Origin: Chiloscyllium plagiosum
Lineage: Eukaryota
Assembly (NCBI RefSeq): GCF_004010195.1
Contig: NC_057718.1
Coordinates: forward strand, 77,878,318 to 77,942,317
Length of the DNA stretch: 64,000 bases
Direction: 5' to 3'
Position 1 is the stretch's first letter. Each line of letters begins with the position of its first letter. The notes beneath the pieces are model-generated. The model was not told where the DNA came from. It searched no databases and saw nothing but the letters and a program-made list of their open reading frames with translations. Shown piece by piece: positions 9,460 through 50,020 of the stretch. The position numbers and the translations under genes are program-made.

Positions 9460-9837
9460 GTTCATGGTCATCATTAGACTCTTAGTTCCAGATTTTTGTT
9501 GAATTAAAATTCCAGCATCTGCCATAGCAAGACTTGAACCTAGGTCGCCAGAACATTACCTGGGTCTCTGGTTTAATAGTCGAGAGTGTGGTGCTGGAAA
9601 AGCACAGCAGGTCAGGCAGCATCCAAGGAGCAGAAGACACGATGTTTCGGGCATAAGTTCTTCATCAGGAATGCCCTTTCCTAATGAAAGGCTTATGACC
9701 GAAACACCGATTCTCCTGCTCCTCGGATGCTGCCTGACCTGCTGTGCTTTTCCAGCACCACACTCTCTACTCTGATCTCCAGCATATTCAGTCCTCACTT
9801 TCTCCTCTTTGTTTTAAAAGTCTAGCAATATTACCAC
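9460..9837 (-). mobile_element. 5' part of a second tRNA-derived SINE family (SacSINE1/Deu-like), interrupted by a palindrome
   Basis: Aligns to the longer copy at 49505-50020 (catctgccat..ttgaacc..ccagaacattacctgggtctctgg..taatagtctag). Family name is from recall. Confidence 0.55.
9582..9806. mobile_element. Hammerhead-centred fold-back palindrome (PLE terminus derived), copy 1
   Basis: Arms gtgctggaaaagcacagcaggtcaggcagcatcc / ggatgctgcctgacctgctgtgcttttccagcac. Minus strand has CTGATGA..GAAAC at the centre. Degenerate 16-bp TSD at 9566-9581 / 9807-9822. Confidence 0.8.
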
Positions 9838-10275
9838 CTGGTCAGGCTCATTTCCCAATACAAGATCAAATACAGCCACTTCTCTATTTGGAGTATCAAC
9901 ATATTTTTGAATAATCCCTCCTGGATGCACCGAACAACTTCTGTCCCATTTATGCCCCTAGCACTAAGAGAATCCCAGTGAATATTGGAGAAATTAAAAT
10001 CACCAACTTTCACAACCCTTTATTTTTAAATCTTTCCACGATCTGCTAATATATCTCTTTCCTCTAATTGCCACTGGCTATTGAGAGGCCTATAATATAC
10101 TCCCATCATAGCAAATGTAGCTTTCTCATTCCTAAATTCTACCCAAATTGCCTCACTGATGACTTCTCCAAAATGTCCTCTCTTAGTACAGGTGTGACAT
10201 TCTCCTTAATTAGTAATGCAATTTCCTAACCCCTTCTACACCCTTTATATCATGCCTGAAACATCTTAACCCTAA
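9838..10275 (-). mobile_element. CR1 APE-domain fragment
   Basis: VGDFNFSNIHWDS motif on the minus strand. Confidence 0.65.
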
Positions 10276-11392
10276 CCTGGTAGGCTATTGCACAAAATTC
10301 GGAGGCATGGGATTGAGGGTGTTTTAGTGGTTTGGATCAGAAATTGGCTAGCCGAAAGAAGACAGAGGGTAGTGGTTGATGGGAAATGTTCATCCTGGAG
10401 TTCAGTTACTAGTGGTGTACCACAAGGATCTGTTTTGGGACCACTTCTGTTTGACATTTTTAAAAATGACCGAGATGAGGGCATAGAAGGATGGGTTAGT
10501 AAATTTGCGGATGACGCTAATGTAGATGGAGCTGTGAATAGTGCAGAAGGATGTTGCAGGTTACAGAGGGACATAGATAGGCTGCAGGGCTGGGTTGACA
10601 GGTTGCAAATGGAGTCTAATGCAGAAAAGTGTGAGGTGATTCACTCTGGAATGAGCAACAGGAATAAAGAATACTAGGCTAATGGTAAGATTTGTGATAG
10701 TGAAGATGAGCAGAAAGATCTCAGTATCAATCTACATAGATCCCTGAAAGTTGCCAACCAGGTTGATAGTGTCGTTAAGAAGGCATACGATGTGTTAGCT
10801 TTTATTGGTGGAGGAATTGAGTTTCGGAGTCATGAGGTCATGCTGCAGCTGTACAAAACTCTAGTGTGGTCGCACTTGGAATATTGCGCACAGTTCTGGT
10901 CACCGCATTATAGGAAGGATGTGGAAGCTTTAGAAAGGGTTCAGAAGAGATTCACTAGGATGTTGCCTGGTAGGGAGGGGAGGCCTTATGAAGAAAAGCT
11001 GAGGAACTTGAGGCTGTTTTCGTTAGAGAGAAGGTTGAGAGGTGACTTAATTGAGACATATAAGATAATCAAATGGTTAGATAGGGTAGACAGTAAGAAC
11101 CTTTTTCCTCAGATGTGATGACTAGCATGAGGGGACATAGCTTTAAATTGAGGGATGATAGATATAGGACAGATGTCCGAGGTAGTTTCTTTACTTTAGT
11201 AGGGGCGTGGAACGCACTGTCTGCAACAGTAGTAGACTCGCCAACTTTAAGGGCATTTAAATGGTCATTGGGTAAACATGTGGATGAAAATGAAATAGTG
11301 TAGGATAGATAGGCTTCAGATTGGTTCCACATGTTGGTGCAACATTGGGGGCCAAATGGCCTGTACTCCGCTGCAATGTTCTATGTTCTATA
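10276..11392 (+). mobile_element. 5'-truncated CR1 LINE (RT to 3' end)
   Basis: [31 protein letters not shown] and LEYCAQFWSP; tail tgttctatgttcta. Confidence 0.9.
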
Positions 11393-12669
11393 AAGCTGTA
11401 CGCTATACTCCAGATGTGGTACAACTATAGCAAGACTCATTTGTTCTTGTACTTCAATCCCATTTTGTCTCATATGCTCATGTGGTTGACACTGACACTC
11501 AAGGAACCATCACCATCCTCATAACCCTTATAACTTTATTTGTGTCCATGGCACCTGGCTCTCTCACTCCAACCCCACTTTGCTCACCGCTCTACTCAAT
11601 GTCCTTTGTGTCCTGCTCTTGTGCTTCACTTTGCGTTCCCACACTCAATTCACTTGGTGTGCCCCTTCCTTACTTGGTGACCCATGTATTACCTCCTGGT
11701 CTCTTTACTCCTGCTCAGACTCCCACTCTCCACCTTACTCTTGAGGACTGTGAATTGAGAGACAGGAACGGGAGAGAGATGGTGAGAGGTTAGGTGCAGG
11801 TGCACAAGTGTTTGGAGTGGGGCAGTGAACAAAGTGCGATCCCAGGGTTTGAATATTTTTAAAAAACATTTAATATTCATATTATTGCATCTCTTCTTTG
11901 ATGCAAGCACCTTACTGTAGCATCACTGGCATGATGTCACATGTGCTGTGACTGTGTGGAAAGTGAGTACACACCCTGCAGTTGCACTGGCATAGATATA
12001 CACTAAGACTGCATTTTTGTGTCCTCTTCACAGTTTACATGACCAACTTTATGTCATCAGCAAAGCTAAGATACATTATTCTTGGTTTCTTTGTTAAATG
12101 TATTCACATAAATTGTAAATAATGGGGTACCCAGCACTAATTCCTACAACAATACGTTCATTACAGCATAGGCTGACTTGAAAATATCCTACTGGTGCCT
12201 TTTCTCAGTATTCTGTTACAAATCCTCTATTCATGCTAATATTTTATTTCCAATTCTACAAGCCCTTATCTTGCATTTTAACCTTTTGTGTGGCACCTGA
12301 TCAAATTACTTTTGGAAATCTATGCATATAATATCGACTCAAAGCCCAAATAACTGCGGATACTGGAAATCTGAAACTTAAACAGAAATTGCTAGAGAAA
12401 TACAGGTCTGGCAGTATCTGTGGAGAGAAAGCAGAATTAACGTTTTGATACCTTCTTCAGATCAATCTGAGTGACTTGCTCACAGGCTCCACAAATCACT
12501 GGTTTGAGTCTTCCACATTAATACATCTACTAGCAGCAAATGCAGGGGAAAACCAGTCTATCGTTGGAGGAGCACAAGACACAAAGAATCTCCAATGACA
12601 GCAGCAGCTCCTCACCAAATCTGTCTCTCTCACATAGAGGGTGACCTTGTTCTGATTATTATTTGCAGG

Positions 12670-12900
12670 AGCAGGTGTTGGACTGGGGTGGACAAAGTTA
12701 AAAATCACACAACACCAGATTATAGTCCAACAGGTTTATTTTGTATTGTGTCATTGTCTCACTGTAATCTTTTGCTATAAATTCTGTGTCCTATGGTCCT
12801 GCTTCACAACCACCTGATGAAGAAGCAGCGCTTCAAAAGCTAGTGCTTCCAAATAAACCTGTTGGACTATAACCTGGTGTTGTGTGATTTTTAACTTTGT
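12670..12900. mobile_element. Short inverted-repeat element from a second PLE family, with a degenerate hammerhead
   Basis: ~50-bp inverted repeats at 12692-12741 and 12851-12900. ctgatgaagaagcagcgcttcaaaagct at ~12814. The same terminus occurs on the PLE at 32410-34410 and at ~53110. Confidence 0.7.
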
Positions 12901-13435
12901 TCTGATTAGGCAGTGCTACCCAACCCTCAATGGCACAGGTAATTTAGCACAATGCTGTCCATCCACTACCAAGGTCTGTTTACATCAGCACTGGAACCTT
13001 ATTTGTAACAGCTGCCTCTCAAACTCGGAAATCCTGAGCTGGAATTCAAGCATCTGAAAACATTTCCTTTCTATGATGTGCTTAAGATATATACAGTGTA
13101 CTTGAGTTCCCACATGCTACAGGAATTGCAAACAACAGGTCTCAGCTGCTCATCCATAATCAAAAAATATTCTATACTTTCTTTAGAATTTAGTTAGCAA
13201 TCTGACAAAAAAATTTATTTCATTTTTATGCCTGTCTTCCTGTCTGTGAACATCCTTACTTTTAACACATTTAGTGTTATACCAACCCTGATGATACTTT
13301 TTTTTAAAGCGGATGTTAGAAATCTGAAATGAAAACAGAAATGTTCGAAATATTCTGGCCTGGCAGCATCAGTTGAGGGAAAAGCAGTTAATGTAAATAT
13401 TAAATTTGTTTCTCTTCCCATAGACACTGTCACAC

Positions 13436-14715
13436 ATAGAGTCACAGAGATGTATAGCACGGAAACAGAACCTTTGGGTCCAACTTGTCCATGCCTACTA
13501 GACATCCTAACCTAATCTCTTCCCATTTGCCAGCACTTGGCCCATATCCCTCTAAATTCTCCCTATCCATATACCCATCCAGACGCCTCCTAAGTGTTCT
13601 AATTGTACTAGCCTCCACCACTTCCTCTGGCAGCTTATTCCATACACGCACTCCCCTCTGCATGAAAAAGTTGCCCCTAAGGTCCCTTTTATATCCTTCC
13701 CCACTCACCATAAACTTATGCCCTCTAGTTCAGGATTCACCCACTCCTAGGAAAAGATCTTGACTATTTACCCTATACATGCCCCTCATGATTTTATAGA
13801 CCCCTATAAGATCATCCCTCAGCCTCCGATGATCCAGGGAATACAGCCCCAGCCTATTCAGCATCTCCCTACAGCTCAAATCCTCCGAACCTGGCAACAT
13901 CCTTATAAATCTTTTCTGAACCCTTTCAAGTTTCACAACATCCTTCTGAAAGGAGGGAGACAAGAATTGCACACAATATTCCAAAAGTGGACTAACCAAT
14001 GTCCTATACAGCCACAACATGACGTCCCAACTCTTATACTCAATGTTCTGACCAACAAAGGAAAGTATAACAGATGCCTTCTTCACTATCCTATCTACCT
14101 GTGACTCCACTTTCAAGGAACTATGAACCTGCACTCCAAGGTCTCTTTGTTCAGCAACACTCCCCAGGACCTCAATTAAACTCCATCTGGCACTCCTGAG
14201 CCCATTGGCTGATTAACATTCCATTGTAATCTGAGGTAACCTTCTTCGCTGTCCACTACATCTCCAACTTTGGTGTCATCTGCAAACTTACTGACTATAC
14301 CTCCTATGTTCACATCCAAATCATTTATATAAATTACGAAAAGCAGTGGACCAAACATTGATCCTTGTGGCACACCAGTGGTCACAGGCCTCCAGTCTGA
14401 AAGGCAACCCTCCACCACCCTCTGTCTTCTCCCTTCGAGCCAGTTCTGTATTTGAATGGCTATTTCTCCCTGTATTCCATGAGATCTAATCTTGCTAACC
14501 AATCTACCATGGGGAACCTTGTTGAATGCCTTACTGAGTGAGGTCCATATGAATCACATCCACAGCTCTACCCTCATCAATCCTCACCATTACTTCTTCA
14601 AAAATTTCAATCAGTTCATGAGGCATAATTTCCCACGCACAAAGCCATGCTGACTATCCCTAATCAGTCCTTGCCTTTCCAAATACATGTAAATCCTGTC
14701 CTGCAGGATTCCCTA
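13436..14715 (-). mobile_element. 5'-truncated CR1 LINE
   Basis: [27 protein letters not shown] and RDLRGNFF..WNKLP on the minus strand, plus the 3'UTR. Confidence 0.9.
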
Positions 14716-14944
14716 GGAGAAAATGAGGATTGCACATGCTGGAGATCAGAGACAAGAGTGTAATGCTGGAAAAGCACAGCAGGTCAGGTAGCATCCCAAG
14801 AGCAGGAGAATCGACAGTCCTGATGAAAGGCTAATGCAGAAACATTGATTTTCCTGCTCCTCGGATGCTGCCTGACCTGCTGTGCTTTTCCAGCACCACT
14901 CTAATCTAGACTGATTTCCAGCATCTGCAGTCCTCACTTTCTCC
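14716..14944. mobile_element. Hammerhead-centred fold-back palindrome, copy 2
   Basis: Outer ends ggagaaaatgagga..tcctcactttctcc; central cctgatgaaaggctaatgcagaaac. Confidence 0.8.
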
Positions 14945-14984
14945 ACAACATGACACATGCCTGGGGCATTTGGAAATTGAACTC

Positions 14985-16145
14985 AGACAAAACTGAAATG
15001 AATGTAGATGCTGTAAATCAGAAACAAAAGCAAAATTGCTAGAAAATCTCAGCAGGTATGGCAGCATATGTGGAGAGAATCAGAGTTAATATATCAGGTC
15101 CAACGACCCTTCTTCAGAATTGATGAGAGCTAGGAAAAAGTTGTTTTTTTAATGCAGAAGATAGGGGCGGGGGAGGGGCTAAAGAATAAACAATAGCTGG
15201 AAATTGAGCCCAAAGAGAGAGAACACTTTGACAGACCAAGAAGTGGATAACACTCAGTCTCGAAGAATGAATGGCACTACTGGGGACTACTAATGGCTCA
15301 CAATGGGTAGTGTGTAATAGCAGACCATGTGATAACAAGGCCTAAAGGGTTGGGATAAGGGTGTCTCAAGCCGTAAAATTGTTGAACTCAATATTGAATC
15401 GAGAAGGCTGTAGAGTTCCCAAGCAGAAAATGAGGCATTGTTCTTCCAGCTTGCACTGAGCTTCACTGGATGACTGCAGCAAGGGTGAGACAGAGATATT
15501 GGCCAAGGAATAATGTGGTGTATTGAAGTGGCAAGCAGCTGGAAACTCAGGGGTTTTTCCAGACAGAACGTACGTGTTCTGCGAAACGGTCACCCACTCC
15601 ATACTTTGTTTTCCCAACGTAGAGGAGACCACATTTTGAGCAGCGAAGTCAGTACACAAGGTTGCGTGAAGTGTAGATAAAGCATTGCTTCAGCTGGAAG
15701 GTGTGCTTTGACCCTTGGACCCGAGGAAGGAGGAAGTAAACGAGTAGGTATTACGCCTTCTGTGGTTGCAGGGGAAGGTGCCATGGGACTGTGAGAGGTG
15801 GAGTGAAGGAGAAGTGGACTAGGTGTCCTGGAAGGAACAGTCCTTGTGGAAGGCTGACAAGGGAGGAGAGGGGAATATGTGTCTGGTGGTGGCATCTCAA
15901 TGGAGGTGGTAGAAATGGTGAGAAATGGGTCAGACCCAGCTGACGGCCCTGTCAACTACAGTGCTAGGGAATCCTCAGTTGAAGAAGGTGGGCATTTCAG
16001 AGACCTCCTTGTCGAAGTTGGCATCATCAGAACAGATGTGACAGAGACACAGGAACTGGTAGAATGAAAGAGTATTTACAGAAAGCCGGGTGTAAGGACG
16101 TATAATCAAGGTAACTATGGGAGTCAGTGACTTGTAGTGGACCAT
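14985..16145 (-). mobile_element. Decayed Penelope-like element (GIY-YIG region and terminus)
   Basis: ACHFNTPHYS..SEAQCKLEEQCLIFCLGTLQPSRFNIEFNNF is a PLE endonuclease C-terminus. Homologous to 45586-46982. Degenerate hammerhead at ~15083-15120. Confidence 0.8.
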
Positions 16146-16204
16146 AACAAATCCTAACTGACTTGCTCCATCTTGGAAACCTTGCCAATTACTTCTTATC
16201 ACCT

Positions 16205-16800
16205 ACTCCTTCGCCTGGTTCGAGTGCGCATGCGGTAGGTGGTTTCGAGTCACACCTCTCGAAACGGGGAGGGGACGTCATTGTGGGTCGCGAGAGCGGC
16301 GGTTGGGTGGCGCTCGAGACTGAGGCGACGGTCGAGCGAGCGTGCGCTTTGCCGCGAAGACGCAGCCGGAATCCGGCGGCGGCGGCGGTTTTCCGGTCGC
16401 GGTTCCTCATTCCTGCCTCCTTATTCACCTTTTTCCTTCACGGAAATTCACCTGACTGATTCGACGCAATCACTTTTTTTTTGTCGATTTGATTGCGGTG
16501 TTTAATTCGCACCGTGTTCCCCACTCTCGAAGGATGTCGAGTCGCGAGGAGGAACGCACGAAACTGGCGGAGATCATTAACCACTGGAATGCCAACCGGC
16601 TGGACCTGTTCGAAATCAGCCAACCGACCGAGGTGAGTACCGCGGCCTGAAGCGCCGGTACAGGCCGCGGTTGCCCATTCCCCCAGGAGGGACCAGCCAG
16701 GCGATTCAATGGCCCGGACCACGCAGCCTGATTCGGCAATTGAGAGTGGAGAAACTGGTGAATTCTGATGTTTTGTGCAGCACTTTTGCTGTCCGCCCTT
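16205..16800 (+). promoter_or_regulatory. AFDN: CpG-island promoter / 5'UTR of AFDN
   Basis: The strongest non-repeat CpG-dense stretch in the window. NRF1-type TGCGCATGCG (16225-16234), CRE-like GACGTCA (16274-16280), TCGCGAGA (16288-16295) and ETS-type CCGGAA (16366-16371, and 16391-16396 on the minus strand). The TSS cannot be placed from sequence. Confidence 0.8.
16534..16632 (+). CDS. AFDN: Afadin (AF-6/MLLT4) first coding exon
   Basis: Translates MSSREEERTKLAEIINHWNANRLDLFEISQPTE, matching the afadin N-terminus (..RDEERRKLADIIHHWNANRLDLFEISQPTE). ATG has A at -3, and the exon ends at a consensus donor GAG|GTGAGT (phase 0). Too short for the ORF track. Confidence 0.96.
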
Positions 16801-19704
16801 TCCACAACAAAGGGCATCCCAGCCTGAGTACTGGCTGGTCGACTCGGCAGCAGGTTGGGGGTTGGGTGTTTGGTGTTTGTTCTGGGGCGGGGAGGAGAGA
16901 AGTGGGTAGTGGTGGGAATGAGATAATAAAATGCCGAATTCTTGCCATGTGTTCTATTTGTGACTTCATTTTTTTTTTAATTTGGAAAGCCACCCTGAAT
17001 TAAGAATTAAAGGGCGTGCCGTGAACGCTGAGACCATTATGTTGGAAGTTAATTTCCCCGGCTCTCAAGCTAAGGGTAGCGCCAGAGATTGCACCTTCCT
17101 GGGACAGGAGACTATTTCTTGTAACTTTTAACAAGCGTTTCAGATTAAGTTAGTTACTGTGATTTGTTTAGCTTTAAGAAGAACCCTTTGTAAAACAATG
17201 AGTTTGATCCCCATATTTTCCTTAGCTATTTTCGAGGTTTTTAAAAATTTTCATCTCACCCTCTCGTGTGTTCACATCACATAGGTTTGAGATTCAAACC
17301 CAATAGTTTCATGTCATTTTTCCTTAAGTTATTTGTGCTGATGTCCAAATGAGCTAGTGCAAATCAAAGATGTCAGTGGTTGCTCGCATATCTTAATGTT
17401 TCAGACATTTCATTTTGCATGTTTTTGACGACTGCAACTTCAGTAAACAAAATGGAAAGAACAAATTTGGCTGGGAATGTTTGAGTCGATTTGGACGTGA
17501 ATATTAATCAGGATTTTGACATGGTCTATTCAATTAGACCTCCAAGTAATGTAGAAATTCATAGCTTGAAATCAAAAAATATACATTTAATATATTGCAA
17601 CACCACTAAACTTTTTTCCCAAATGGCATAGCCAGAAATTAGAGTTGTAAGATTGTTGGATTAGGGTGACACTTCCTCTAAGATATCTTCCATAAAATTC
17701 AGGAACACTTATTTGGTTTGTCACTACAGTGATTTTCCAACATTTAAAGGGAGCAGTTTTTTGTAAGGCAACATAGTTTTCAGGCGTCTGAATGGGAGAA
17801 TCTGTCTGGGAAAAGGAAAACTATTTACTAACATGCAGCAACAAAAATAACATGCTGGTAAATATAGGAAAATACATTTGATAATTTTAGGCTGTTGTAC
17901 TATTCTGGTTATCAGTTTGAAATGTTTAACCTTTCTGCATGGTGTGTCATAAATGTTACTTGTCTTAGAAGTCATGTGTTCATTTCTATTTCTGTTCTTT
18001 GTGTTTCTAGCTTAATTTGTTAATTGAACTTGCCTTTTCAAGTTATTAGTTCTGGTATAATGGGCTAAAGCATACCTTTTTGACTGTGCATTGCATGTTT
18101 AGAAAATGGATGTCAAAATTCAGGCAAACTGGAATGTCTGCAGCAGTGGCTCTGTCTCTCAATATTGAAAATAACAGTTCTCGTAGAATGAAAAATGTCC
18201 TTAACTTTTCATTTGTGAGTAAAATCATCTAATTTGATATTCGTGCAGTAAAATATTAGGAATGCTGAATGTTTACAGCAAACTAGAGTTGTATCAATTG
18301 CTTAAATGTTTGATACATGTAGAACCCCCAAATAAAATTAGTTTTAAAAAATGCTTGCCTCGATCACGGTTCTAATCTTAAGCTGCCATTGATCATCTTA
18401 TTGTATATTATTTGTTTTGCATACAGTTGTTCTTGTATTGCTTAATAAATATAAATGTAAAAGCACTGCACCGGGTGATTAGACGTGAATTTTCACACCG
18501 CTGACCCTAGCTGTTGAGAGTAACTAATTTGGTTCACCTTTTTATTGAGCAAGTGTTCTGTAAGAATACAGTACAATATCTTGTCTGAAGCATGTTTTAA
18601 GAGGCATGGCTACAGGGAGGGAGGCATCAAGGGAAAGTGGTTTGAAAACGGTCAGCTGAAATAATAGTTTCAAGTGAAAGAGCTGGGGAGGAAGAGGAAT
18701 TTGTCATCGGAGCAGAATAAACGTGTTGGAATGTCCAGCTGAAGTAGACTTCCGGATGTTTATAACCTGTTTTCTTGTATGTGTGTATATCGTAATGGTT
18801 CTTGCTGTGTGAATATAATTTTTTCTATAGTATTTTGCTTGCGGGTATGCCAAACATGTTTGAGTGGTATGGGATGAGGAATCTCCTTTGGTACCTTGTG
18901 CATACCCCTTGTGAGAAAGTGTGCTGTAAATATTGTTAGTTTGGTTCTCAGTCCCTTCCGTTGTTCCGTTTGAGGAAATTAAACACAAACACATGTAATA
19001 GAAATGACATGGTACTATGGATTCCATGTAGCCGGTGTTTCCTTTTTAATTGTGAGTAACACTGTTGGTGGGACGTCTTTAGGACTTGAAACAGCACTCT
19101 GCAGTATACTGTTCCCTTTTTTAAATTGAACACCTTGCACTTAATTTTTATAAAATGATGTTTGTGTTAATGAAGTTCTTGATTCTGTGCAGTTTTTTAT
19201 GGCATGGTTTTTATTTGAATCTGAGATGGGACTGTTAGAAATCTAACGCGAAGTTAGAAATGCAACTGCCACCTAGCTATTGGTTTTCTTGATTTGTATT
19301 AAGGAGCCAAAACCATTAGTGGGGTTTTTGTTTGATCTGAGAGTTTTACCATTTCCTTGTATATGGCTAAATATTTCAAATTATTACGTTTTTAAGAAAG
19401 TACATTCTGACGTGTGAAAGAAACTTGAAGGCAGATTAGGTTACCTCCGGGGTCAAGCATTTATTTAGTAGAGCAACCTGGAATTCCGTGAAGTGAAATT
19501 CTGAATCGAGGTAGCTTTTCCTAGTTAATGGTCAAAAGGTGTTGCAGCAGATTGTGCACTTGTTCCTAGAAAATAGTAAATGGCATATTGAAACTGTTTA
19601 ATTCCTGTTTAATAAGAAGCCCAGCAAAAGCTAATGTGCACTTACGATAATTAGAGTAATGTGTTAATTGAATATGCTTGAGGAATAGCATTGTGCATAT
19701 GAAT

Positions 19705-20428: not shown

Positions 20429-20484
20429 GACTTGTCTCCCCCTTTTCCCCCCCCCCCAAAAAAAAATACTCATACGGTATAGTT

Positions 20485-27252: not shown

Positions 27253-27638
27253 CTTTTTTTTTCCCCTTTTCGAACAGTCGCATCAGGGGCTCAAGGCACT
27301 CAATCAATTTGCTTTAAGGTTACAAGTTTGTAATGCAAGGTCAGAGAAGGTTTGTAGCTCAGGTTGAGGTTTAGGGTGTAGGTTTGCTCGCTGAGCTGTA
27401 GGTTTGATATCCAGACGTTTCATTACCTGGCTAGGTAACATCAGTGGCGACCTACAAGTGAAGCGAAGCTGTTGTCTCCTGCTTTCTATTTATATCTTTG
27501 TCCTGGATGGGGTTCCTGAGGTTTCTGGTGATGTCACGTGTCCTGTTCGTTTTCTGAGAGGTTGATAGATGGTATCTAGATCTATGTGTTTGTTTATGGC
27601 GTTGTGATTGGAGTGCCAGGCCTCTAGGAATTCTCTAG

Positions 27639-27883
27639 GAGAAAGTGAGGTCTGCAGATGCTGGAGATCAAAGTTGAAACTTTATTGCTGGAACAGCACA
27701 GCAGGTCAGGCAGCATCCAGGGAACAGGAGATTCGACGTTTCGGGCACAGGCCCTTCTTCAGGAATCCGACGTTTCGGGCACAGGCCCTTCTTCAGGAAG
27801 AAGGGCCTGTGCCCGAAACGTCGAATCTCCTGTTCCCTGGATGCTGCCTGACCTGCTGTGCTGTTCCAGCAATAAAGTTTCAA
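27639..27883. mobile_element. Hammerhead-centred fold-back palindrome, copy 3 (young, with tandem hammerheads)
   Basis: Essentially identical arms; 34-bp tandem unit at 27734 and 27768; TSD ctctaggaattctctag at 27622-27638 / 27884-27900. Confidence 0.88.
27728..27768 (-). ncRNA. Minimal type I hammerhead ribozyme motif
   Basis: Minus strand GAUUC CUGAAGA A GGGC-CUGU-GCCC GAAAC GUC|GAAUC: intact core, 4-bp stem II and 5-bp stem I. Confidence 0.75.
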
Positions 27884-28106
27884 CTCTAGGAATTCTCTAG
27901 CCTGTCCCAGGATAGATGTGTTGTCCCAGTCGAAATGGTTGTTTTTTTCTTCTCCATGTATAGGGCTACGAGGGAGAGAGGGTCGTGTCTTTTTGTGGCC
28001 AGCTGATCGTGTATCCTGGATGCACGATGCCAGGATACACGAAAAGACACGACCCTGTAATTTTAAAAAGGACATGATGTTGCACAATTTGAATGTTTAA
28101 AAAAAA

Positions 28107-34410: not shown

Positions 34411-34999
34411 GTAGCCCAGGTTTATTATCTTTTTCAATCTATTTAAACATTTTCACAGTGACTCGCATGATTTCTCCACACAGTTTACTGTAATTTTTTG
34501 TAGGAGCAAATTGCTGCAAATGCTGGAATCTGAACTGAAAACAAAAAATGTTGGCGATCTCAGCGGGTCAGGCAGCATCCATGGAGAGAAAGCAAGCTAA
34601 TGTTTCATGATGACTGTTCAGGGCTGAAGTGAAGTGTGGAGGGGACAGCATTTATGCAATAGTGGGGTGGTTGGAGTGTAAAGTACTGGGGGAGAAAGGA
34701 TGTTGATAGTTCAAATTAAGTGATCAGTGAATCACTCTGCAAACTGGAGGAGCACATCACATCTTCAGACTAGACAATTTGCAACCTTCTGGCTCAATAT
34801 TGAGTTCAACACCTGGAAATTATGAACCTGTTCCTTCCCTTTTCTTTAGCTTTTGCTTATTACATTCTCTGTTACGCTTCCCCCACCTCTTGGGACTGTC
34901 TTTCCACTCTAGCAGTTACACTATTGTTCTACCATTCTCTCATTCTGATCACCCTAAGCCAGATTCCCCAATTTGTTCATCTGAGAGCATTGGTTTTAC

Positions 35000-36353: not shown

Positions 36354-36354
36354 G

Positions 36355-37215: not shown

Positions 37216-38453
37216 ATTCATTATGGACAGTCTGTTTCTGTGCTGTATGACTGAGAAACAGTCTGTGAGCGCAGGAGCAGTGAGAAGATGGGGTGGTGAG
37301 CAAGCTTTTGCTACTGCCATACGTGTGAGAGATGCCAGACTGGGGCTGCACTGCGGAAGCTCGGATTGACATTGCCAAGGTGTGGAGAAAAGACTTGGCA
37401 AAGGGAAGGGGTGGAAGAAGACTGCATTGTGGGGCATGTGGAAGTGGGGATAACAGTTTAAACCTGTTAACAAAGAAATACTCAGCCAACTGGGAATGAG
37501 GAAAATATCAGAGATAATGAATTCTTTGAAAATGAAAAGGAAGTCTTTTAGGCTGTTAATGTTCAAGAATTACTTTACGAGGAAAAGATGTTGTGGATGC
37601 ATACTGTAAACTAAGTTGAGTTTAAAATCAGAATTTGAGGTTTAAGATTTAGTTAACAGTAGTAACTAATCTGGTTCGTGTCTTTTTACTCATGAAATTA
37701 TTGGTTGTATAAAAAAAATGCAAATTTATGCTTGTGCCAAAGTGTCTGTTGAATTGATACTTGTTTTGTGACTTTCAAGTATAATGGTGTATTGCTAATT
37801 GAAGATATTGATGAATTCTTATTCACCTACTGAGAGGAACAAATATGCTAAGTGTTGATCAGTATTCCCTCTAACTTGCTTTTTGGTGCCTCCAAGGTCT
37901 GTTTGCGCCAGTGGCTTCAGGAGCCAGATGTCAGTGCCCTGCTTTGCATACTGATCCCCTTGCACAAAATCCGGCAGTGGCTGCGCATGCAGTCACTCAT
38001 CTTAGGGTGGGATGTTGATGATAACACAATGGATCCTGCTGTTCAGCTTTTCTTTGCCAAAATCATCGACAGTAAGCTTTCAACTTTCTGAAACTGAAGT
38101 TGTGAACATTGGCATGAATGTGACCCATTCAAGGAACTCCCATTACACTAAGACATATCTATTTAAATGTAGAAAATGCTGGAAATACAGGTAAATAGAT
38201 TTTTTAAGGTGAAATGGTTAATGTTTCAGGTCAATAACCTTTCATTAGAACTGGAAGAAGATAGCAATGTAGTTCGCCTTAAGTAATGTGATTTGGGTCT
38301 GAGAACAAAAAGAAAGGTAAGATTGAATGGCAAGAGTATGTGGGGCTAGGAGTGTGATAATGAGACAAGTAAAGCAAGGAATGATGGATCTTGACAAGAT
38401 ATGGATGATATTCGTATTGCCAACCAAAAGCAAAAATGAGGGGGGAAATTCTC

Positions 38454-39627
38454 AATTCTCCGTTCGGTGTTCTCTGTACCATCACGTCTAGGAATGCAAA
38501 GATTAGAACAAACAGTCTTACCGCAAATTCAACCCAAACTCTGGGTCAGATATGTGGATGGCAGCTTTTTAATCATTAAAAACACAGAAATAGAGAACAC
38601 ACACCGGATCATCAACGCCACACTCGCAGGAATCCGATTCACTAGAGAGGAAGAAAAGGACAACCAACTTCCATTCCTAGACGTAATGGTACAAAGAACA
38701 CCGAACGGAGAATTCACCACAAAGGTATACAGGAAAGCCACACACACAGACCAAGTCCTGAACTACGAAAGCAACCACCCCAACCCACACAAAAGAAGTT
38801 GCATCAAGACACTATTCAAAAGGGCCACAACACACTGCAGTACACCAGAACTGCAAAAAGAGGAAAAAGGACACCTATACAATGTATTTGCCAAAAACTG
38901 ATACCCGTGCAACTTCATCAACAGATGCCTAAGGGAAAGACAACGCAACAAGGACATGCCGCAACCCAAAGGACTAGCCACACTACCATACATCAAGAGC
39001 ATTTCCGAACTGACAGCCAGACTACTGCGACCACTAGGACTCATAACAGCACACAAACCAACAGCCACTCTCAGACAAGAACTCACCAGAACGAAGGACC
39101 CGATACCCAGCATGAGCAAAACCAATGTAGTGTACAAAATCCCATGCAAGGACTGCACAAAGCACTACATAGGACAAACAGGAAGACAGCTAACGATCCG
39201 CATCCATGAACACCAACTAGCCACGAAATGACACGACCAGCTATCCTTAGTATTAACACACGCAGATGACAAGCAAGATGAATTCGACTGGGACAACACT
39301 ACTATTATAGGACAAGCCAAACAGAGAACAGCCAGGGAATTCTAACAGGCATGGCACTCATCCACAGATTCAATCAATAAGCACATCGACCTGGACCCAA
39401 TATACCGACCACTGCTGCGGACAGCTGGAACTGACACCCGGAAGCGGCAGATTCAAACCAGTATAAATGCCAGAGGAAACATCACAGAAGCGCTTCACAG
39501 GAGGCTCCCAAGCACTGAGGATGTCACCTAGACAGGGGACGAAACGTCTGCAACACAAATTCCCAGCTCAGTGAACAGAACCACAACCACAAGCACCCGA
39601 GCTACAAATCTTCTCCCAAAGTTTGAA
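38454..39627 (+). mobile_element. 5'-truncated Penelope-like element (RT C-terminus + GIY-YIG)
   Basis: WVRYVDG, LPFLDV, VYRKATHT, NVVYKIPCKDCTKHYIGQTGRQLTIRIHEH; terminal hammerhead. Confidence 0.92.
39512..39551 (+). ncRNA. Minimal type I hammerhead ribozyme motif
   Basis: GCA CUGAGGA U GUCACCU-AGAC-AGGGGAC GAAAC GUC|UGC. Confidence 0.75.
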
Positions 39628-40894: not shown

Positions 40895-41240
40895 TATTCC
40901 TTCATGTGATGTGGGCATCACTGGTTGGCCAGCATTTATTGCCCATCCCTAAATGCCATTGAGAATGTCATGGTGAACTGCTTTCTTGAGCTTTTTACAG
41001 TTGCAGTAGATTGACCTACAATGCTGTTAGGGAGGGAATTCCAGGATTTGGACCCAGTGACAGTGAAGGAATGGTGATATATTATCAAATCAGGGTGGTA
41101 AGTGTCTTGGAAGGGAACTTGTCGGTGATGGTGTTCCAAGGTATGTGCTGCCCTGTTCTTCTAGGTGAAAGCGATTGTGGGTTTGAAAGATGTTGTCTAG
41201 GGATCTTTGAATTTCTGCAGTGATCTTGGAGATGTTGCAG
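40895..41240 (-). mobile_element. 3' end of an L2/CR1-group LINE sharing its tail with the Deu-like SINE
   Basis: TVTGSKSWNSLPNSIV..; tail gggatgggcaataaatgctggcc is also seen at ~49505, ~52620 and ~53370. Confidence 0.6.
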
Positions 41241-41295
41241 ACCATTCAAGCATTGTGTGCACGATACAGCTTTCCCATATTGGCACTAACCACCT

Positions 41296-41335
41296 GAGTT
41301 CTGAGGAAGGGTCACTTGACCTGAAATGTTAACTC
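41296..41335 (+). ncRNA. Hammerhead ribozyme motif in an isolated PLE terminus
   Basis: GAGUU CUGAGGA A GGGUC-ACUU-GACCU GAAAU GUU|AACUC, with a perfect 5-bp stem I. It is followed by the PLE tail cagatgctgccaggcctgctgag. Confidence 0.65.
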
Positions 41336-42289
41336 TGGTTTCTCTCCACAGATGCTGCCAGGCCTGCTGAGCTTTTCCAGCAATTTTTGATTCTGATTCA
41401 CAACATCTTTTTGGTTTTTATTCCCCAGAACCTCAGCTGAGTTTCTGGATTAATAATCTAGTGATAATATTACTGGGCCCACTGTCTTCCCATATGCTGC
41501 TGGATGAGCACCAAAATAAGAGAAACTAAAATAAATGGGAAAAAAAATGTGAGTAGAAACTATGGTCTGAAATTGTTCAACTCCAAAGTTGAGCCCAAGG
41601 TTGTCAAGTGCATAATGGAAGGATGAAGTGCTTGTGTTGAACTATATGGGAACATTGCACTAGGCTGAAGACAGAAGTATGCGAGCAAGGCGCTGAAATA
41701 AAACAGGCTGCTGAAATGTTGGGGTCATGCTTGTGAATTGAATGGAGCTGTTCCAGAAAACACTGTTTGGTGCCTCCAGTATCAAGGAGGACCATTATGA
41801 GCTGTGAATACAGTGGGCCAGATTGAAAGAATTATACACTGCTGTTTTAGTATTTGACATCTAAGATGCTGAGATGAAAGGAACTAAAAGGGGGGCAGTA
41901 TTACATCTTGTATTTGCAGAGATAGGAAGGGAACAGGATGTTCAGTGTGATTGAGGAGTCAGTACCCACAATGTGGTCCCTTCAGAATGCTGAGGGGGCA
42001 AAGGGAAGAAGTTTGGTGGTATCACATTGGAGGCAGCAGAAATGGTGGGGTTGGGGTTTGGGGGGGGGGGGAGCGGGGAGAGAATGATTCTGACTCAAGT
42101 TATGCCTAACACAAAGAAACATGGTTGTGACTGTTGGCTATCAATTACCTCAATACAGGGTATCACTGCTGGAGTTACTCGGTGTAGTGCCCGAGGCTGA
42201 ATCAACTTCAGCATTTTTAAATGAGCTTTCCTTTGGCATGACGTCAGAAGTTGACAGATGATTACCGTTTATTGCAGCATGTTCACCAT

Positions 42290-44300
42290 TCATTCAACTA
42301 TGAATTTAGGAGCAAGAGTAGACCATTACGCTCCTTGAGCCTGTTCTGGCATTCAATAAATTCATGTCTGATCTATTGTATCCTCCAATTCACATTCCCA
42401 CTTACTCCTGTTAATGTTTTACCTTGCTTAGCAAGGATATATTTATTAATGCCTGAAAAATATTGAAGGATTCTGTTTTTGCCACCTTTTCAGGAAGAGA
42501 GTTTCAAAGACACTCGACCCTGAGCGAAAAATGTTGTTTAATGTGTGCTTTAAGTGGGTGTTCCCTGATATTTAGATAATCCGTAGTTCTTGATTCTCCC
42601 ATGATCGGAAACATCCTCTTCAAATCTACACTGCAAAAATCGCTTAGGATCTAGTATAATCAGTCTTAATTATCTCTTAATCTTTGAAAAGCTAAAGGAA
42701 ACAAGCCTAGTCTGTTCAACGCTTCCTCAAGACACATTACCCAATACAGCAATTAGTCTAGTAAACCTCTGAAATGCTTCTATATATCTGTAAATAAGGT
42801 GGCCAATATTGTATACCATACTCCAGGTGCAGTCTTGATTCAGATTCATATGCCCTGTTTGACTGAAGTATAACCTCCTTCCTTTTGAATTCAATTTTCC
42901 TTTGTGATATAAGACATTGTATTAGCTTTTCTAATTACTTCCTGTACCTGCATACCCAATCTCCTGTTTTTCATTCTCCTTTAGCCCTCTGCATCTTAAA
43001 GCTCTGCAATCTGTCAATGTTTTTAGTTCTCCTGCCAAAATGGTGGATTTCTCATTTTCCCAAGTTATATTCAATTTGCCACATTTTTGCTCACTCACTT
43101 TATTTTTTTGTAGCCTCCTTGCGTCCTCTTCACAATTTAATTTCCTATCTTTGTTTCATCAGCTAATTTGGCAACCATGCCTACCCATTCCTTCATCTAG
43201 GTTATTTCTAAAAGTTGTAAACAGTCAAAATATTCAATACTGATTCCTGTGGCTCAGCACTCTTTCCAACCTAATTTATATCTACCCTCCTTTCCATTGA
43301 CCAGCCATTTTTCTCCAACCAAGTCTTCTGTCCATCATGTTGTGGTGTCTCATGTCTTCTGGAAATCAAATTACAGTATATCCATTCATCTACAGTACCT
43401 GTTGCCACCTCAAAGTGCTCCAATAGATTGGCTAGACATAGTTTCGAGGACAGGAAACCATGTTCACTCTACCAGATTGCCTTGGTCTTACCGAAGTATC
43501 CTGCTACAATCTTTTCAATAATAGCTTCTAATAGTTTTCATGATACTGTAAGCTAAGTAGCCTTTACCTTCCTGATTTCTGCCTTCCTCTCTTTATTGAA
43601 AGAAAGGATTTATATTTTCCATCTTCTAGACCAGTGTTACCGTACCTGACTCCTCATGAAGCCTTAGATACTGAGGCAACTTGGGTCTATAATCAGCATA
43701 AGTCTAAATGGAGTACAGGAATAGAGGAACATAAGTTGTTGAAATTGGCTGTTTGATTGTATATAATTTCCTAGACTTGTTAGAGAGGTAAATAGTACAA
43801 GAATAAGGATGTTGTGTCGAAACTTGTATAAAGCACTGGTCCAGCATAAACCAGAGTATTGCATCCACTTCTGGGGAACTGCAATTTGGAAAGGATGTGA
43901 AGGCACTCGAGTACAGAAAAAATCACTAGAATAATTCTGTAGATGAGGAACTTCTTTGGAATGAGGAGAGATTTTATTAGGGTCTATAACTTTAAATGGT
44001 GCCTGTGCAGAGTAGGAAGGGATAAACCCTCTCTGCTCATAAGGGGAACCAGAATGAGAGGGCACATAAAAACAGTAAATGTGATGAGATAAAACTTATT
44101 CACACAAGTTGTAAAGGTAAGCAGTGCAATGCCTGAGTGTGTGGTGGAGACAGTTTCAATTGAAACATTCCAAAGAAAGTTAAACCCTTATTTAAAAAAG
44201 ACGAATGTGCATGGTTGCTGGAAAAATATACCAAGTGAATTGCTAATTTGAGAGCTGATGCACAATGGGTCAAAAAACCACTTGCGCTGTTACAATTGTG
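42290..44300. mobile_element. Old degenerate CR1-type fragments (minus ~42290-43650, plus ~43750-44300)
   Basis: Residual ORF2 C-terminal and 3'UTR similarity (e.g. gagtattgcatccacttctgg). Confidence 0.5.
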
Positions 44301-44518
44301 AAATTATTTCAGTGAGATAGGAACAGACTGAATTGAGGGATCCGCCAATGCACTCTTGTTTATAGATTTTTTTGGAGGTGGTATTAACAAAGTATTCAGG
44401 GTTGGTAGGAAACTGACGTGGGCAGTGGCAGGACGGGTTTAGTGAAAATCACCAGAGGAGATGAGGACAGTGAGCTGGAATTAATAACTTGATAATGATC
44501 TCCTCATGTTCACCTTTG

Positions 44519-44760
44519 AGGAGAAAGTGAGGGCTGCAGATGCTGGAGATCAGAGCTGAAAATGTGTTGCTGGAAAAGCGCAGCAGGTCAGGCAGCATCC
44601 AAGGAGCAGGAGAATAGACGTTTCGGGCATGAGCCCTTCTTCAGGCTCATGCCCGAAATGTCTATTCTCCTGCTCCTTGGATGCTGCCTGACCTGCTGCG
44701 CTTTTCCAGCAACACATTTTCAGCTCTAATCTCCAGCATCTGCAGTCCTCACTTTCTCCT
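44519..44760. mobile_element. Hammerhead-centred fold-back palindrome, copy 4 (both arms complete)
   Basis: ~115-bp near-perfect arms aggagaaagtgag..ctcactttctcct. Minus strand CUGAAGA A GGGC-UCAU-GCCC GAAAC GUC at 44617-44644. Confidence 0.88.
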
Positions 44761-45585
44761 ATCATTTGGAAAACCCCAGTTCAATTCATTCAAAAAGCTG
44801 CAAAGGTTTTGAGAGTTTCTACAGTGGTTTCCACTTGTCTGCATTCCAATGACATAGTCTACAGAAAAGAAGTACTGAGAACAATGTTTGGATTTCCAAA
44901 TTTGTGTACATGTGAACTCCAGAAGTTGGTATCTGTTTCAGGTGAATAATGATGACTGCTGACAGTTTTGCAGTAACTACTACTGAAAAATACAGACAAT
45001 TAAAACATAGTTTTTGAATTGAAACCAAATGTGTACTGAGTCCTCAATGTGCTGCCAGTTTGAAGCTGTTGGAAGTTAATTGGTAGTACACAGTTAATAG
45101 ACCAGAATTCATTAATTCCACAACTGCTTGTCCTCTGATAGTTACTACTTAGGTGAGGCAAAAACTGAAATATTGAATCGTACATCACTGTGAATGTTGC
45201 AACACGACTCAGACTGCAGGAGTTCAAGGTGTTGCTTTATTATCTTTGCCAGGGCAGTTGGGTATTAGCAATTAATGTTGGCCTTTCTGATGATGGCTAT
45301 GTCCCTTGAATTTAAAAATCCACAAACCCTTCCCAGCTGTGTATAGATATTGAACAAGAGACTTTGAACATTGGATCCTGACAAAGAAAGTTTACAGTTC
45401 CAGATGACGACCACTCCTTTTAGCAGTGATCTGATGACATGAACTGAAGAACTTACATTTAATGTTATTGAGCATGGTTGAAGAAAAACATAGGCTGTTA
45501 AGGGCTTGTGCTAAAAAGAAATGGTCTTGGGATTGAGATTGGGATTATGATCAGACTCCTCTCCAGCTCATATCTGTTGTTTTAA

Positions 45586-46982
45586 ACCAAAAGAGAAAAT
45601 GCTAGAAAATCTCAGCAGGTCTGGCAGCATCTGTAAGGAGAGAAAAGGGCTGACGCTTCGATTCTAACTGACCCTTTGTCAAAGCTGAAAATAGGGAGGT
45701 ATTTATACTAGGCTGAGAGAAGGCGAGTCATGGCTCCAGAAGCAAAGGTAGCAGTAAAGAGGTGATAATAATGCGTGGAGAGCTTATGGGGAGATTAGGA
45801 GCTGTGAATGACCAAGGCTGAAGCCAGTGCTACGTGACAAAATATGTGGGGGATGGGTGAAGCAGAGGCAAAATGGAAAACCGAGGAGAACGGTAGCATA
45901 GGGGGAAGAGGAGCGGAAAAAGTGATAGAGTGGGGAGCGAGAGAAAGAAAGACAATCAAGAAATAAGAGGTACAGAACAGTGAACAAAATATATTAAAAA
46001 AAAATAAAATAAATGAAATAAAATTACAGAGCAGAATGAAAACAGGTGTCGAGATGGGATAATCATCTGAAGTTGTTGAATTCAATGTTGAGGCCGGCAG
46101 GCTGTAACGGAAGATGAGATGCTGTTCCTCCAGTTTGCGTTGAGCTTCACTGGAACATTCCAGTTTGCGTTGAGCTTCACTGGAACATTGCAGCAGGCCA
46201 AGAACAGACATGTGGGCATGGGAGCAAGATTGTGTGTTGAAGTGGCAAGCCACGGGAAGGTCCGGGACCTGATTGCGGACAGATCGAAGGCGCTCAGCAA
46301 AGCGATCACCCAGTCGTCGTTTTGTCTCTCCGATATAGAGGCGACCACATTGGGAGCAACGAATGTAATAGACCAAATTGAAAGAGGTACAAGTGAAACG
46401 CTGCTTAATCTGAAATGAGTGTTTTGGGCCTTGGATGGTGAGCATGGAAGAGGTAAAGGGGCAGGTGTTGCACCTTCTGCGATTGCATGGGAAGGTGTCA
46501 TGTGTGATGGGAGAGGTGTTAGGTGTGATAAGAATTGGACTAGGTTGTCCTGGAGGGAACGATATCTGCGGAATACAGACGGGGAGGGAAGGGAAGATAA
46601 GATATGTTTAGTGGTGGCGTCGTGTTGGAGTTGGGGAAAATGGCGGAGGATTATTCTTTGCATGTGAAGGTTGATGGGGTGAAAGGTGAGAACAAGAGGG
46701 GCCCTATCCTTGTTCTGGGAGGGGAGGCAGGGGGTGAGGGTTGTGGCGCGGGAGATGGGCCGCACGCTGTCGAGAGCCCTGTCAACCACTGTAGGTGGGA
46801 AGCCACTGTTGGAGAAGGAGCACATGTTAAGAGCACCACTTTGGAAAGTGGCCTCATCGGAACAAATGCGGCGGAGGCAAAGGAGCCGAGAGAAAGGAAT
46901 AGAGTCCTTACAGGAGAAGAGCTGTAGTCCAGATAGCTGTGGGAGTCAGTGGGCATGTAATGGATATTAGTGGATAGACTAT
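45586..46982 (-). mobile_element. 5'-truncated Penelope-like element with 11-bp TSD
   Basis: PTDSHSYLDY; NLVYYIRCSQCGRLYIGETKRRLGDRFAE (GIY-YIG); tgttgttttaa at 45575-45585 and 46983-46993. Confidence 0.9.
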
Positions 46983-49504
46983 TGTTGTTTTAATATTGGG
47001 ATTGAAAGAAGCAGAAGTCACACGGAACACAAGCTGTTGAGGCAAAGAAGCTGAACTGTTTTCTTGTTGTGATACTATGAAAGATCAGTGAATAATAGAT
47101 TAAAATTCAATGTCGCGTTTCTATTATATATTCCTATCTAGATTTATTGTTGTGAATTTTCCAAAGCAATTGTAACTTTAATTAGTCTGTCTTCACCCTG
47201 GCAGTAGATGAGTACAATCTTACATTTGCAGGAGTGTATGACTACAATGTAATGAGTTTACATGGTAGTTTATCATTTTTTTATATATATAAATAAAGTA
47301 TATGATTGGATAATAATATTGAAGAAAAGAATGAAGATATGATTTTAAAATGAAAGTTGAATTAGATTTCACTGGACCAACATATCCCAGACCCTCTGAC
47401 TCTGTTTAACTGGAATGTTATACTCCATTTGCAATGTTCCAGGAAAAAACTATTATATAGAAAAGTTTCATGTACCACTGCTCAACTTCAGTTTTAACCC
47501 CCCCCCCCCCAAATTTTTACGATTCCACTTACGGATCCCTTGCATTGCATGATAACTGAATGTCAGGATACTACAAATCTGATGAAGATGCGATATTAGC
47601 TGTATGGGAATTTGGGATTGCCCTTGAGCAGTTAGTGTCAAGTGAATGCGATTTTATTTTTGTATTTGCTGCCTTTAGCACAGAATTAAAATGCATCTTG
47701 TTTATTCATTTATACTACACTTCTAGTTTTGTTAAAGACTTGGTATAGCTTAGGTGGCACAGGTGCCTTGAATCAGTAAATACCAAAACTTAATTCCTTG
47801 CCAGAAGTATGGCAAACAAAATTTGTGGCTGTTAACTGCACTTGTTGCATTTCCTTTGTTTTCTCTCGAATAAATATCTAGTTTTGGTTTAGAACGCTTC
47901 AAAGTTCTGTCATAAGCACTTCCTGTGGTCCTAAGTTCTACTTTCTGACCACGAATCAAGAAGCTTCTCCTTATTTCCCTGGATTTGACTTGAGTGAATT
48001 GTTTATGGCTTGTTTTGAATTCTCCTATAAGTAGGAGCATTTTCACTTGATGGTCTCCTTCAACCAGAGCTATGATAGAGTACTATTTGTTTTTAATTCA
48101 GTCAATATAATTGTTTTGTAGCATACTGCTAGTTGTATGGATTTTTCTTTCATATTATCATTGTTAGGTTTAATAAGATAATTCTCCTCTTTCGTCCCTT
48201 CCCTCCTTAAATGCGATATTTAATCATTTCTATGTCTGGATTTTCTAAATTATTGCCTCAAGTTTTGTTTTGAATAGTGCATGTATTGCTAGACCAAAAC
48301 TTAATTCATTTTATTGTTCTTTGTTTTTAGGAGAAGGTTTATCTTGGTCTGTGACTTTATATGATTTCTAGTAATTTGTCCTTCTTTCCTTTTTAGTTTA
48401 ACCTTGATTCTTCTGAAATTTCTGTAAATTCCAGTAATATTGCTTCCCATGATAGCTTAAAATCTCATTTATGGATCTAGTTATCCTGTATTAGAACTTC
48501 GGCTTCAACCTAATTTGGGAGCAGCCTGCCCTAACAGTTAATGTCCCATGAAATAGAGTGCCTTCTTTCTGCACCAGTCCTTTAGCCACATGGTTTTATT
48601 TTAATTGGTTTAGGGGAAAACATTAGTAATATGACTTTTGTGATAATTTCTAGGTATCCTTTTTATGTGGCACCTGAAACTGTCCAAATATGGACTTTAC
48701 ATTGCTGAAGAAAAACATACGTTTTGTTATTGTGCAGCCCTCTAGATAGGTTATCATTGTTAGCCTTGTTGATGTGGTGTTTTTTCAAAAAACACCTTAC
48801 CCTTATTTTTAGTTATATTAATTTGTTCCCTCTTAGGACTTTGCTACTTCCAATTTTTTACTTTTTTTTATAAGACTGATTTGGTTCTGTTTTGGTTCAA
48901 AATAGATAAACTCTAATTTTCCTGTGTTCTTAACGATGAACATGCAATAATGGTACATTGAATGTGGCTTGGATTCCTAATGTGTACAATTTACATCTAG
49001 AATTATGATCCAGAAAATAAAAGATTATTCAGTAAATTGTTTGCTGGCTCCAAGGATACTTGCTATCGATTTCAAAAAATAAATTCTTATCTTGTCATTC
49101 CCCCGATCTTGCTGAATAATTCCCAACTTAACTGATTTTCATCAGGCCAATAAAATGGTGTGTGGTTTCCTCCCCATTTCTGACACTGAATCACATTGTT
49201 GTGTTTCTGTACTGTAGTTTTTAACTAAGTACTATTGGAAAGCAGTTTTTAATGTGGTACTGAATGAGGCATTTTTAAAATATTTTCATCAAGTAACTGA
49301 AAAGCTCCACACAGCATGGTCCTGTAATACTAGGTTGTGTTATTGTCTATACAGATTGTATAGTACTGTAAGGATTGGTAGGTATCATGAAATTGTGGAG
49401 GTAAATAGCTGATAACTATGCTTTACCTCCTGATTTCAAATGAAACCAAAACACTATCTTATTCAAATCCTGGTTAAGTGGTGTATCTACACTGTCATTA
49501 TAGA

Positions 49505-50020
49505 TATTGCCCATCCCTAATTTCCCAGAGAGCAGTTAAGAGTCAACCACATTGCTGAGAGTCTGGAGTCACACATAGGCCAGACCAGGTAAGGATGGCA
49601 GTTTCCTTCCCTAAAGGGCATTAGTCAACCAGATGGACTTTTCCTGACAATCGAGAATGATTTTATGATTATTTCCAGATAATTATTGAATTCCAATTCC
49701 ACCATCTGCCATGGTAGGATTTGAACCTTGAGTAGAGTGGTGCTGGAAAAGCACAGCAGGCCAGGCAGCATCCGAGGAGCAGGAAAATCGACGTTTCAGG
49801 CAGAGGCCCTAACTCCTGATGAAGGGCCTTTGCCCGAAACGTTGATTTTCCTGCTCCTCAAATGCTGCCTGACCTGCTGTGCTTTTCTAGCACCACTCTG
49901 ATCTTGACTGTAATCTCCAGCATCTGCAGTACCCATTTTCGCTTAGGACTTGAACCTTGTCTCCAGAACGTTACTTGGGTCTCTTGGATTAATAGTCTAG
50001 TGATAATACCACTAGGCCAT
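49505..50020 (-). mobile_element. SacSINE1/Deu-like tRNA SINE interrupted by a palindrome
   Basis: Minus head atggcctagtggtattatc..ggttcaaatcc; core ccatctggttgactaatgccctttagggaagg..gactccagac; L2-like tail. Family name is from recall. Confidence 0.65.
49731..49943. mobile_element. Hammerhead-centred fold-back palindrome, copy 5
   Basis: Plus strand CUGAUGA A GGGC-CUUU-GCCC GAAAC GUU at 49816-49843. TSD tagga(t/c)ttgaaccttg at 49715-49730 / 49944-49959. Confidence 0.85.

Follow-up and report, generated by a model that had tools for sequence, protein, structure and literature searches.

Five non-coding palindromes were found in a 64,000-nucleotide stretch of the genome of the shark Chiloscyllium plagiosum (contig NC_057718.1, positions 77,878,318 to 77,942,317 of the forward strand; hereafter the window, whose own numbering is used below). 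Very probably, each of them consists of two 3′ ends of Penelope-like elements (PLEs), carrying a hammerhead motif and a tail, that were joined head to head, most likely during insertion. These palindromes are most likely PLE insertion stubs, of a layout already published for PLEs and of which this shark family is one more case. Indeed, PLE insertions often carry an inverted 5′-truncated copy, a tail of 30-40 bp at one end, and target-site duplications (TSDs) (PMC8557442, PMC3846280); here and below, statements on cited papers refer to those parts of the papers that were available.

Anatomy and outer ends of the palindromes

The palindromes measure 213-245 bp each and stand at the positions given, with lengths of ~210-250 bp, in the preliminary description, which had been made from the letters of the window alone. 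A BLAST search with one arm as query matched the ten palindrome arms and, over short lengths, four other termini (15036, 34561, 41351, and 45600); therefore all five copies of the family in the window are short palindromes. From the centre outward, each arm reads as a hammerhead followed by a tail, with PLE 3′ ends facing outward in 5/5 copies, and an adjacent inverted 5′-truncated copy is accordingly present in all five.

Copy A (9582-9805) is made of a left arm that stops at a short outer end (9582-9673) and a right arm with a tail (9677-9805), both with damaged hammerheads. Copy B (14716-14944) lies inside a CR1-like long interspersed nuclear element (LINE) and has a tail on both arms, the left of which ends near the cleavage triplet. 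In copy C (27639-27883), the left arm bears a tail and two tandem hammerheads, and the right arm is short at both ends; this copy, which is the youngest of the five, was inserted into the endonuclease region of a decayed Poseidon-type PLE. Copy D (44519-44760) has a tail on both arms, which are 97% complementary, and copy E (49731-49943) combines a left arm short at both ends with a right arm that carries a tail and an intact hammerhead core. Copies A and E are inserted in the same short host repeat family (9500-9860 and 49680-50020), at repeat positions ~40 nt apart.

The outer ends fall into two classes, located 10-12 nt or 47-51 nt past a fixed anchor and thus ~37 nt apart. Three arms belong to the short class (A left, C right, E left) and the other seven to the long one, so that copies A, C, and E have one tail, and copies B and D have two. 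One arm had been described as variably truncated; for the outer ends, two fixed classes are observed instead.

TSDs of 16-17 bp flank three copies on the plus strand: A (9565-9581 / 9806-9822, 14/17 matching), C (27622-27638 / 27884-27900, 17/17), and E (49715-49730 / 49944-49959, 15/16). Among 2000 random flank pairs drawn from the window, 4 scored at least 11, which is the score of the weakest of these TSDs. They are true duplications, as the stretch occurs only once in other copies of the host repeats; homologues of the empty site exist within the window for copies A, B, C, and E. At copy B there is no target duplication and the CR1-like LINE sequence is continuous across the site, and no TSD was found in the flanks of copy D. 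The TSDs of ~16 bp, which the preliminary description had announced where visible, thus hold for three copies and are lacking in the other two.

Miniature inverted-repeat transposable elements (MITEs) are non-autonomous class II elements, and the palindromes resemble them in size, in their long inverted arms, and in their high copy number. Nevertheless, they are devoid of symmetric fixed ends (the ends are asymmetric in 3/5 copies), of a fixed short TSD (16-17 bp or none), and of a constant core; moreover, their termini are related to PLE ends and the hammerhead helices covary across families. We therefore give hardly any credence to a cut-and-paste MITE that would contain a hammerhead-like motif by chance. 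A MITE identity was rejected on the asymmetric ends and the variable TSD, in agreement with the preliminary description, which had also set these palindromes apart from such elements.

The hammerhead motifs

A strict descriptor of the minimal hammerhead picked up 8 motifs across the window; in 30 Markov copies of the latter, the mean number was 0.03 (maximum 1). Half of these motifs (4/8) belong to the palindrome family, where they are spread over 3/10 arms. Every arm had been said to carry the series CUGAnGA, stem II, and GAAAC. The motif is real in this family, but only 6/10 arms reach the CUGAnGA box, and core and stem II are intact in only 3/10 arms, namely C left (two motifs), D left, and E right. 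Four arms are truncated within or below the motif, and three others bear damaging changes.

A single minimal type I hammerhead of the family is fully intact in the window; it is located at 27729-27768 on the minus strand, with a stem I of 6 bp, a stem II of 4 bp, a palindromic ACGU in place of helix III, and a predicted cut between 27735 and 27734. A full stem I is present in one family motif only (27762, minus strand), whose minimum-energy fold forms stems I and II, yet is no more stable than those of shuffled sequences. Similarly, arms and tails fold no more stably than shuffles, and no claim is built here on stability. Upstream, copy C carries a second hammerhead (27762-27801, minus strand, CUGA at 27796, predicted cut after 27769) with a stem I of 3 bp. 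Together, the two form a tandem double hammerhead with a period of 34 nt (27729-27801, minus strand), a natural, ready-made dimer construct; a similar joint, from 27767 to 27733, was seen in a public run of a second species. In copy D (CUGA at 44644, minus strand) core and stem II are intact and stem I is not formed, and the right arm of copy E has an intact core (CUGA at 49816, plus strand).

Covariation was examined on 12 motifs, 7 of the family and 5 of other termini, two Poseidon motifs with a longer stem II being excluded. In this alignment, whose structure and limits were chosen from the very sequences aligned, 9/9 pairs change on both sides, and the covariation score was reached by 0/500 shuffles. 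In stem II, all two-sided changes are owed to the 5 motifs from other termini; the 7 family motifs show none among themselves. In the public runs described below, the stem II loop of family copies varies at high frequency, and among the stem II variants listed (52 further rows lie beyond them) the sole family change is a C-to-U that keeps a G-U pair. A stem II kept while its loop changes had been proposed: conserved stem and variable loop were both recovered, but compensatory change within the family was not. An Rfam scan of the window gave 5 weak matches, all under the gathering score and none a hammerhead, and exact-pattern scans of viral and metagenome contigs for the family gave 0 matches.

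The hammerhead would have been inherited from the terminus of the parent element and is broken in most arms. As the motif has a palindromic ACGU and no real helix III, self-cleavage would need a dimer or the help of a protein. Within a stub, the two motifs lie on opposite strands, so that they could not form a dimer within a single transcript and a long hairpin would lock them in; hence the stubs are likely inert dead ends.

Related termini, public copies, and the origin of the palindromes

Four other termini in the window share 47-64% identity with the arms, and two of these termini lie downstream of GIY-YIG-type coding remnants. The first, on the minus strand at 14985-16134, is a decayed 3′ fragment of a Neptune-type PLE with remnants of the linker and of the GIY-YIG domain. 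The second, also on the minus strand (45586-46983), is a Neptune-type 3′ fragment with a CX4CxxC linker and a GIY-YIG-type endonuclease, and its terminus stops at the short end. The CX4CxxC linker is a mark of the Neptune and Nematis clades (PMC8557442). For the endonuclease fragment at 46140-46523, the named best matches come from skates and sharks, with identities of 59-69% (among 9 rows, 4 are named vertebrate entries), and a Pfam scan of 4 PLE fragments returned 0 families. The likeness of the arm tails to the termini at 14985 and 45586, noted in the preliminary description, is one of kinship, but these termini are only 47-60% identical to the palindrome arms and belong to other families. 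The two elements were thus rejected as direct parents and are relatives only. From these related termini, the parent is likely a Neptune-type PLE.

The layout of the palindromes is also that of a coding element. A Poseidon-type PLE insertion (50803-52130) has an inverted 3′ copy, a tail on its left arm only, a hammerhead at 52061, and an exact 13-bp TSD (50790-50802 / 52131-52143); it bears an internal deletion, and unrelated sequence stands at its inversion centre (~51148-51255). A hammerhead-bearing head-to-head stub of a third family (12659-12896, 238 bp) has a tail of 33 nt on one arm and a TSD matching at 15/17. Upstream of its ribozyme, ~90 nt of body are kept, and the palindrome at helix III reads AGCU instead of ACGU. 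The same layout in the palindrome family, in the Poseidon-type PLE, and in this third family means that three unrelated termini make one structure. Thus, the claim that the palindromes are made by PLEs is borne out by the related termini and by the coding Poseidon-type copy. In contrast, a distinct new family of mini-retroelements, as had also been proposed, is not upheld: two other PLE families share the layout, relatives of the arms continue upstream, the centres differ, and these features are published ones of PLEs.

To follow the family beyond the window, one arm (27639-27771) was mapped at 80% likeness onto 4 of the 24 public sequencing runs listed. Matching contigs numbered 25,236 of 19.4 million in run X1 (organism A), 22,812 of 25.4 million in X12 (organism B), and 5,090 of 1.06 million in X18 (organism C), to which 3,021 of 13.0 million raw RNA reads in X21 are added. 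The palindrome family is therefore abundant and common to three species labels; summed contig depth was not used as a copy number. The 3,021 RNA reads are likely intronic or read-through and were not counted as expression of the element. Among 15 of the 17 joints, seven switch strand, all at different places, and four go back. Two of the strand-switch joints stem from RNA reads and could be library artefacts.

These joints bear on the idea that the whole palindrome is a self-propagating unit, mobilised intact as hairpin RNA or as DNA by PLE proteins. The five copies of the window are all palindromes of similar size, and the arms of copies C and D are near-identical, as such a unit would have them. 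Against this stand the five different centres, each copy having its own as the preliminary description had stated, the three arm layouts, the arms of copy B, which are closest to different subfamilies, and the seven different opposite-strand joints among those listed in the public runs. We regard such a unit as very improbable, and copying of the palindrome as a whole was rejected on the five centres and seven joints, all different.

The arms of a copy had been described as sharing variants. They are near-identical in copies C (100%) and D (97%) and less so in E (89%) and A (88%), but those of copy B are only 79% alike and share only 1 non-majority letter; identity between arms of different copies is 71-88%. 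In a tree, the right arm of B groups with the arms of E (bootstrap 70), and its left arm is nearest to the right arm of A. This suggests, with weak support, that copy B arose from two template RNAs, its arms being of different subfamilies. Copy D, with two tails yet matching arms, adds nothing to this idea.

We propose the following course for the insertion, by analogy with what the anole Poseidon enzyme does in vitro. A dimer of the PLE protein, with its GIY-YIG and reverse transcriptase (RT) activities, would make staggered nicks in both target strands. Each nicked 3′ end would prime cDNA synthesis on the RNA from either of two start sites, and a tail would thereby be left on one arm only. 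Both cDNAs would end prematurely, the longer of them at the 5′ strand of stem I, and would be joined by a microhomology of 2-3 nt or by a few extra bases. Repair would then fill the stagger and give the TSD.

Several observations weigh against this account. No coding element with the exact terminus of the palindromes occurs in the window, and a protein search with the 40-residue open frame of the arm, a weak test, gave 2 candidates, none significant. The dual-priming step would be transferred to the palindrome family from an enzyme of the Poseidon clade studied in vitro. Also, at the short end of copy C (and of A), target and element overlap by 4 nt, a hint of base-paired priming, which was not seen in the available part of PMC11167929. 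Alternatively, matching arms could arise if a single cDNA folded back, or by antisense self-priming (PMC3846280); the fixed short end of 3/3 short arms suits a second RNA start better, and fold-back copying gives no reason for a fixed end. Lastly, 5/5 copies break off within the hammerhead or at its edge; random 5′ truncation would be expected to scatter more widely, so that a short dedicated RNA is conceivable. The 40-residue open frame was itself rejected as the start of a parent open reading frame (ORF), as its register is not kept across the related termini.

Such a dedicated non-coding RNA, of ~125-130 nt and starting at stem I, would be a parasite of a Neptune-type PLE similar to short interspersed nuclear elements (SINEs) or to retrozymes, the palindrome still being formed at insertion. 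The longer arm starts within a few nt of the 5′ strand of stem I in 5/5 copies, and 5/7 of the opposite-strand joints listed have one side at 27762-27768, which is this strand. Head-to-tail joints of ~119-128 nt occur in the public runs, that to the long end being found in three of them, and non-autonomous derivatives of PLEs have been published (PMC8557442; bioRxiv 10.64898/2026.07.22.740005). However, in all four runs (221, 233, and 66 contigs; 429 reads) the loose ends behind 27766 begin with one and the same consensus (agreement 0.36-0.5), and a sizeable share of relatives therefore extends upstream of the ribozyme into a body that they have in common; the 12-letter motif of this continuation is absent from the window. 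In addition, the mapping reference itself leaves the family sequence at 27766, so that the pile of ends there is partly made by the reference, and stalling of the RT on the ribozyme structure would yield the same cluster of ends. No pile of RNA starts or ends is listed at the predicted cut in the RNA reads, a weak observation given a poly(A) single-cell library of which 2% was read. On balance, we consider a dedicated RNA improbable, and retain the head-to-head joining of two PLE 3′ ends at insertion.

Among seven units in the window, a TSD is present in 5/5 units with one tail (13-17 bp) and in 0/2 with two tails (Fisher p = 0.048, or 0.10 for the palindrome family alone). As this pattern was noticed post hoc on a small number, we take it as a lead and not as a result. 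It is conceivable, although rather unlikely, that two routes exist: one RNA read from both start sites would yield matching arms with a single tail and a TSD of 13-17 bp, and two RNAs, each read from the far site, would leave a tail on both arms and no TSD, the arms being sometimes of mixed subfamilies, as in copy B. The template would in this case be a short RNA starting at stem I, from a SINE-like parasite at very high copy number in sharks.

Other features of the window may be mentioned here. Further PLE-like termini with hammerheads of other families occur at 38248, 41301, 53112, 34376, 34503-34630, and 39515. A Poseidon-type fragment has a 46-bp inverted copy at its 5′ end (38454-38499 / 38669-38714), an internal and not a terminal inversion. 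At 62740-63177 lies an old element with long, decayed inverted arms (72-83%), in which the descriptor finds no hammerhead and which may be a true DNA-type MITE. A GC-rich region at ~16270-16635 resembles the start of a gene, with a first coding exon up to its splice donor, and copies C, D, and E may sit in introns of this putative gene. Intronic copies are predicted to form long RNA hairpins.

Comparison with known systems

The import of these observations is modest: an abundant palindrome of sharks would be a retroelement product, which MITE finders would likely mislabel. Its many natural copies could provide a cheap in vivo test bed for priming from two start sites and on both strands, so far shown for one PLE in vitro. 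They could also inform on how the inverted ends of PLEs form, a question called unresolved in the literature available. In our literature search, which left most subscription journals, Repbase, Dfam, and supplements outside its scope, no description of this shark family or of a link between tail number and TSD was found. The whale shark genome paper, in its available part, only lists Penelope among repeats, and a 2026 survey of retrozymes includes one chondrichthyan (Li et al., bioRxiv 10.64898/2026.07.22.740005), with supplements that may list chondrichthyan families.

The motif of the palindromes is close to the minimal hammerhead ribozyme (min-HHR) of metazoan PLE repeats, with no true helix III, a palindromic 15.2/16.2, an extra nucleotide before stem II, a G10.1-C11.1 pair, and a short stem I (Cervera and De la Peña, 2014, PMC4209133). 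Stem II has 4 bp in the palindrome family, against 7-8 bp in the min-HHR of Schistosoma, and sharks are unnamed in the available part of that paper. Pairs of min-HHR on opposite strands, 100-700 bp apart, were noted there in Schistosoma, and the form without a real helix III is reported to cleave weakly and as dimers (PMC4209133; review PMC6765202).

Animal retrozymes of the type without long terminal repeats (non-LTR) are likewise short, non-coding, provided with a type I hammerhead, and derived from PLE termini (Cervera and De la Peña, 2020, PMC7229834, which concerns tandem retrozymes; bioRxiv 10.64898/2026.07.22.740005). These retrozymes consist of units repeated head to tail in tandem, each with its own hammerhead, whereas the palindromes are head to head with mostly broken motifs, and only the 34-nt doublet of copy C is a tandem.

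The Poseidon protein of Anolis carolinensis (PAc) nicks and extends both target strands in vitro, from two internal RT start sites on the RNA whose spacing equals the tail, and is predicted to form a dimer; cleavage by its hammerhead is assisted by the protein and dispensable for insertion (Frangieh et al., 2024, PMC11167929). The two RT starts would correspond to the two end classes observed here, and in both systems the hammerhead lies upstream of the tail. Unlike PAc, the termini related to the palindrome family belong to Neptune-type elements; pure palindromic stubs and the link between tail number and TSD are not discussed in the available part of that paper.

The closest known structure is the insertion unit of PLEs with an endonuclease (EN+; Arkhipova et al., 2013, PMC3846280; Craig et al., 2021, PMC8557442). 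In the palindromes, the halves are cut down to the last 80-130 nt, without the coding part and with no parent ORF found, and the TSDs are of 16-17 bp, as compared with 8-10 bp in rotifer PLEs. With this unit the palindromes share head-to-head inverted termini, a variable junction, a tail of ~37 nt on one end (in 3/5 copies), and a TSD that may be present or absent.

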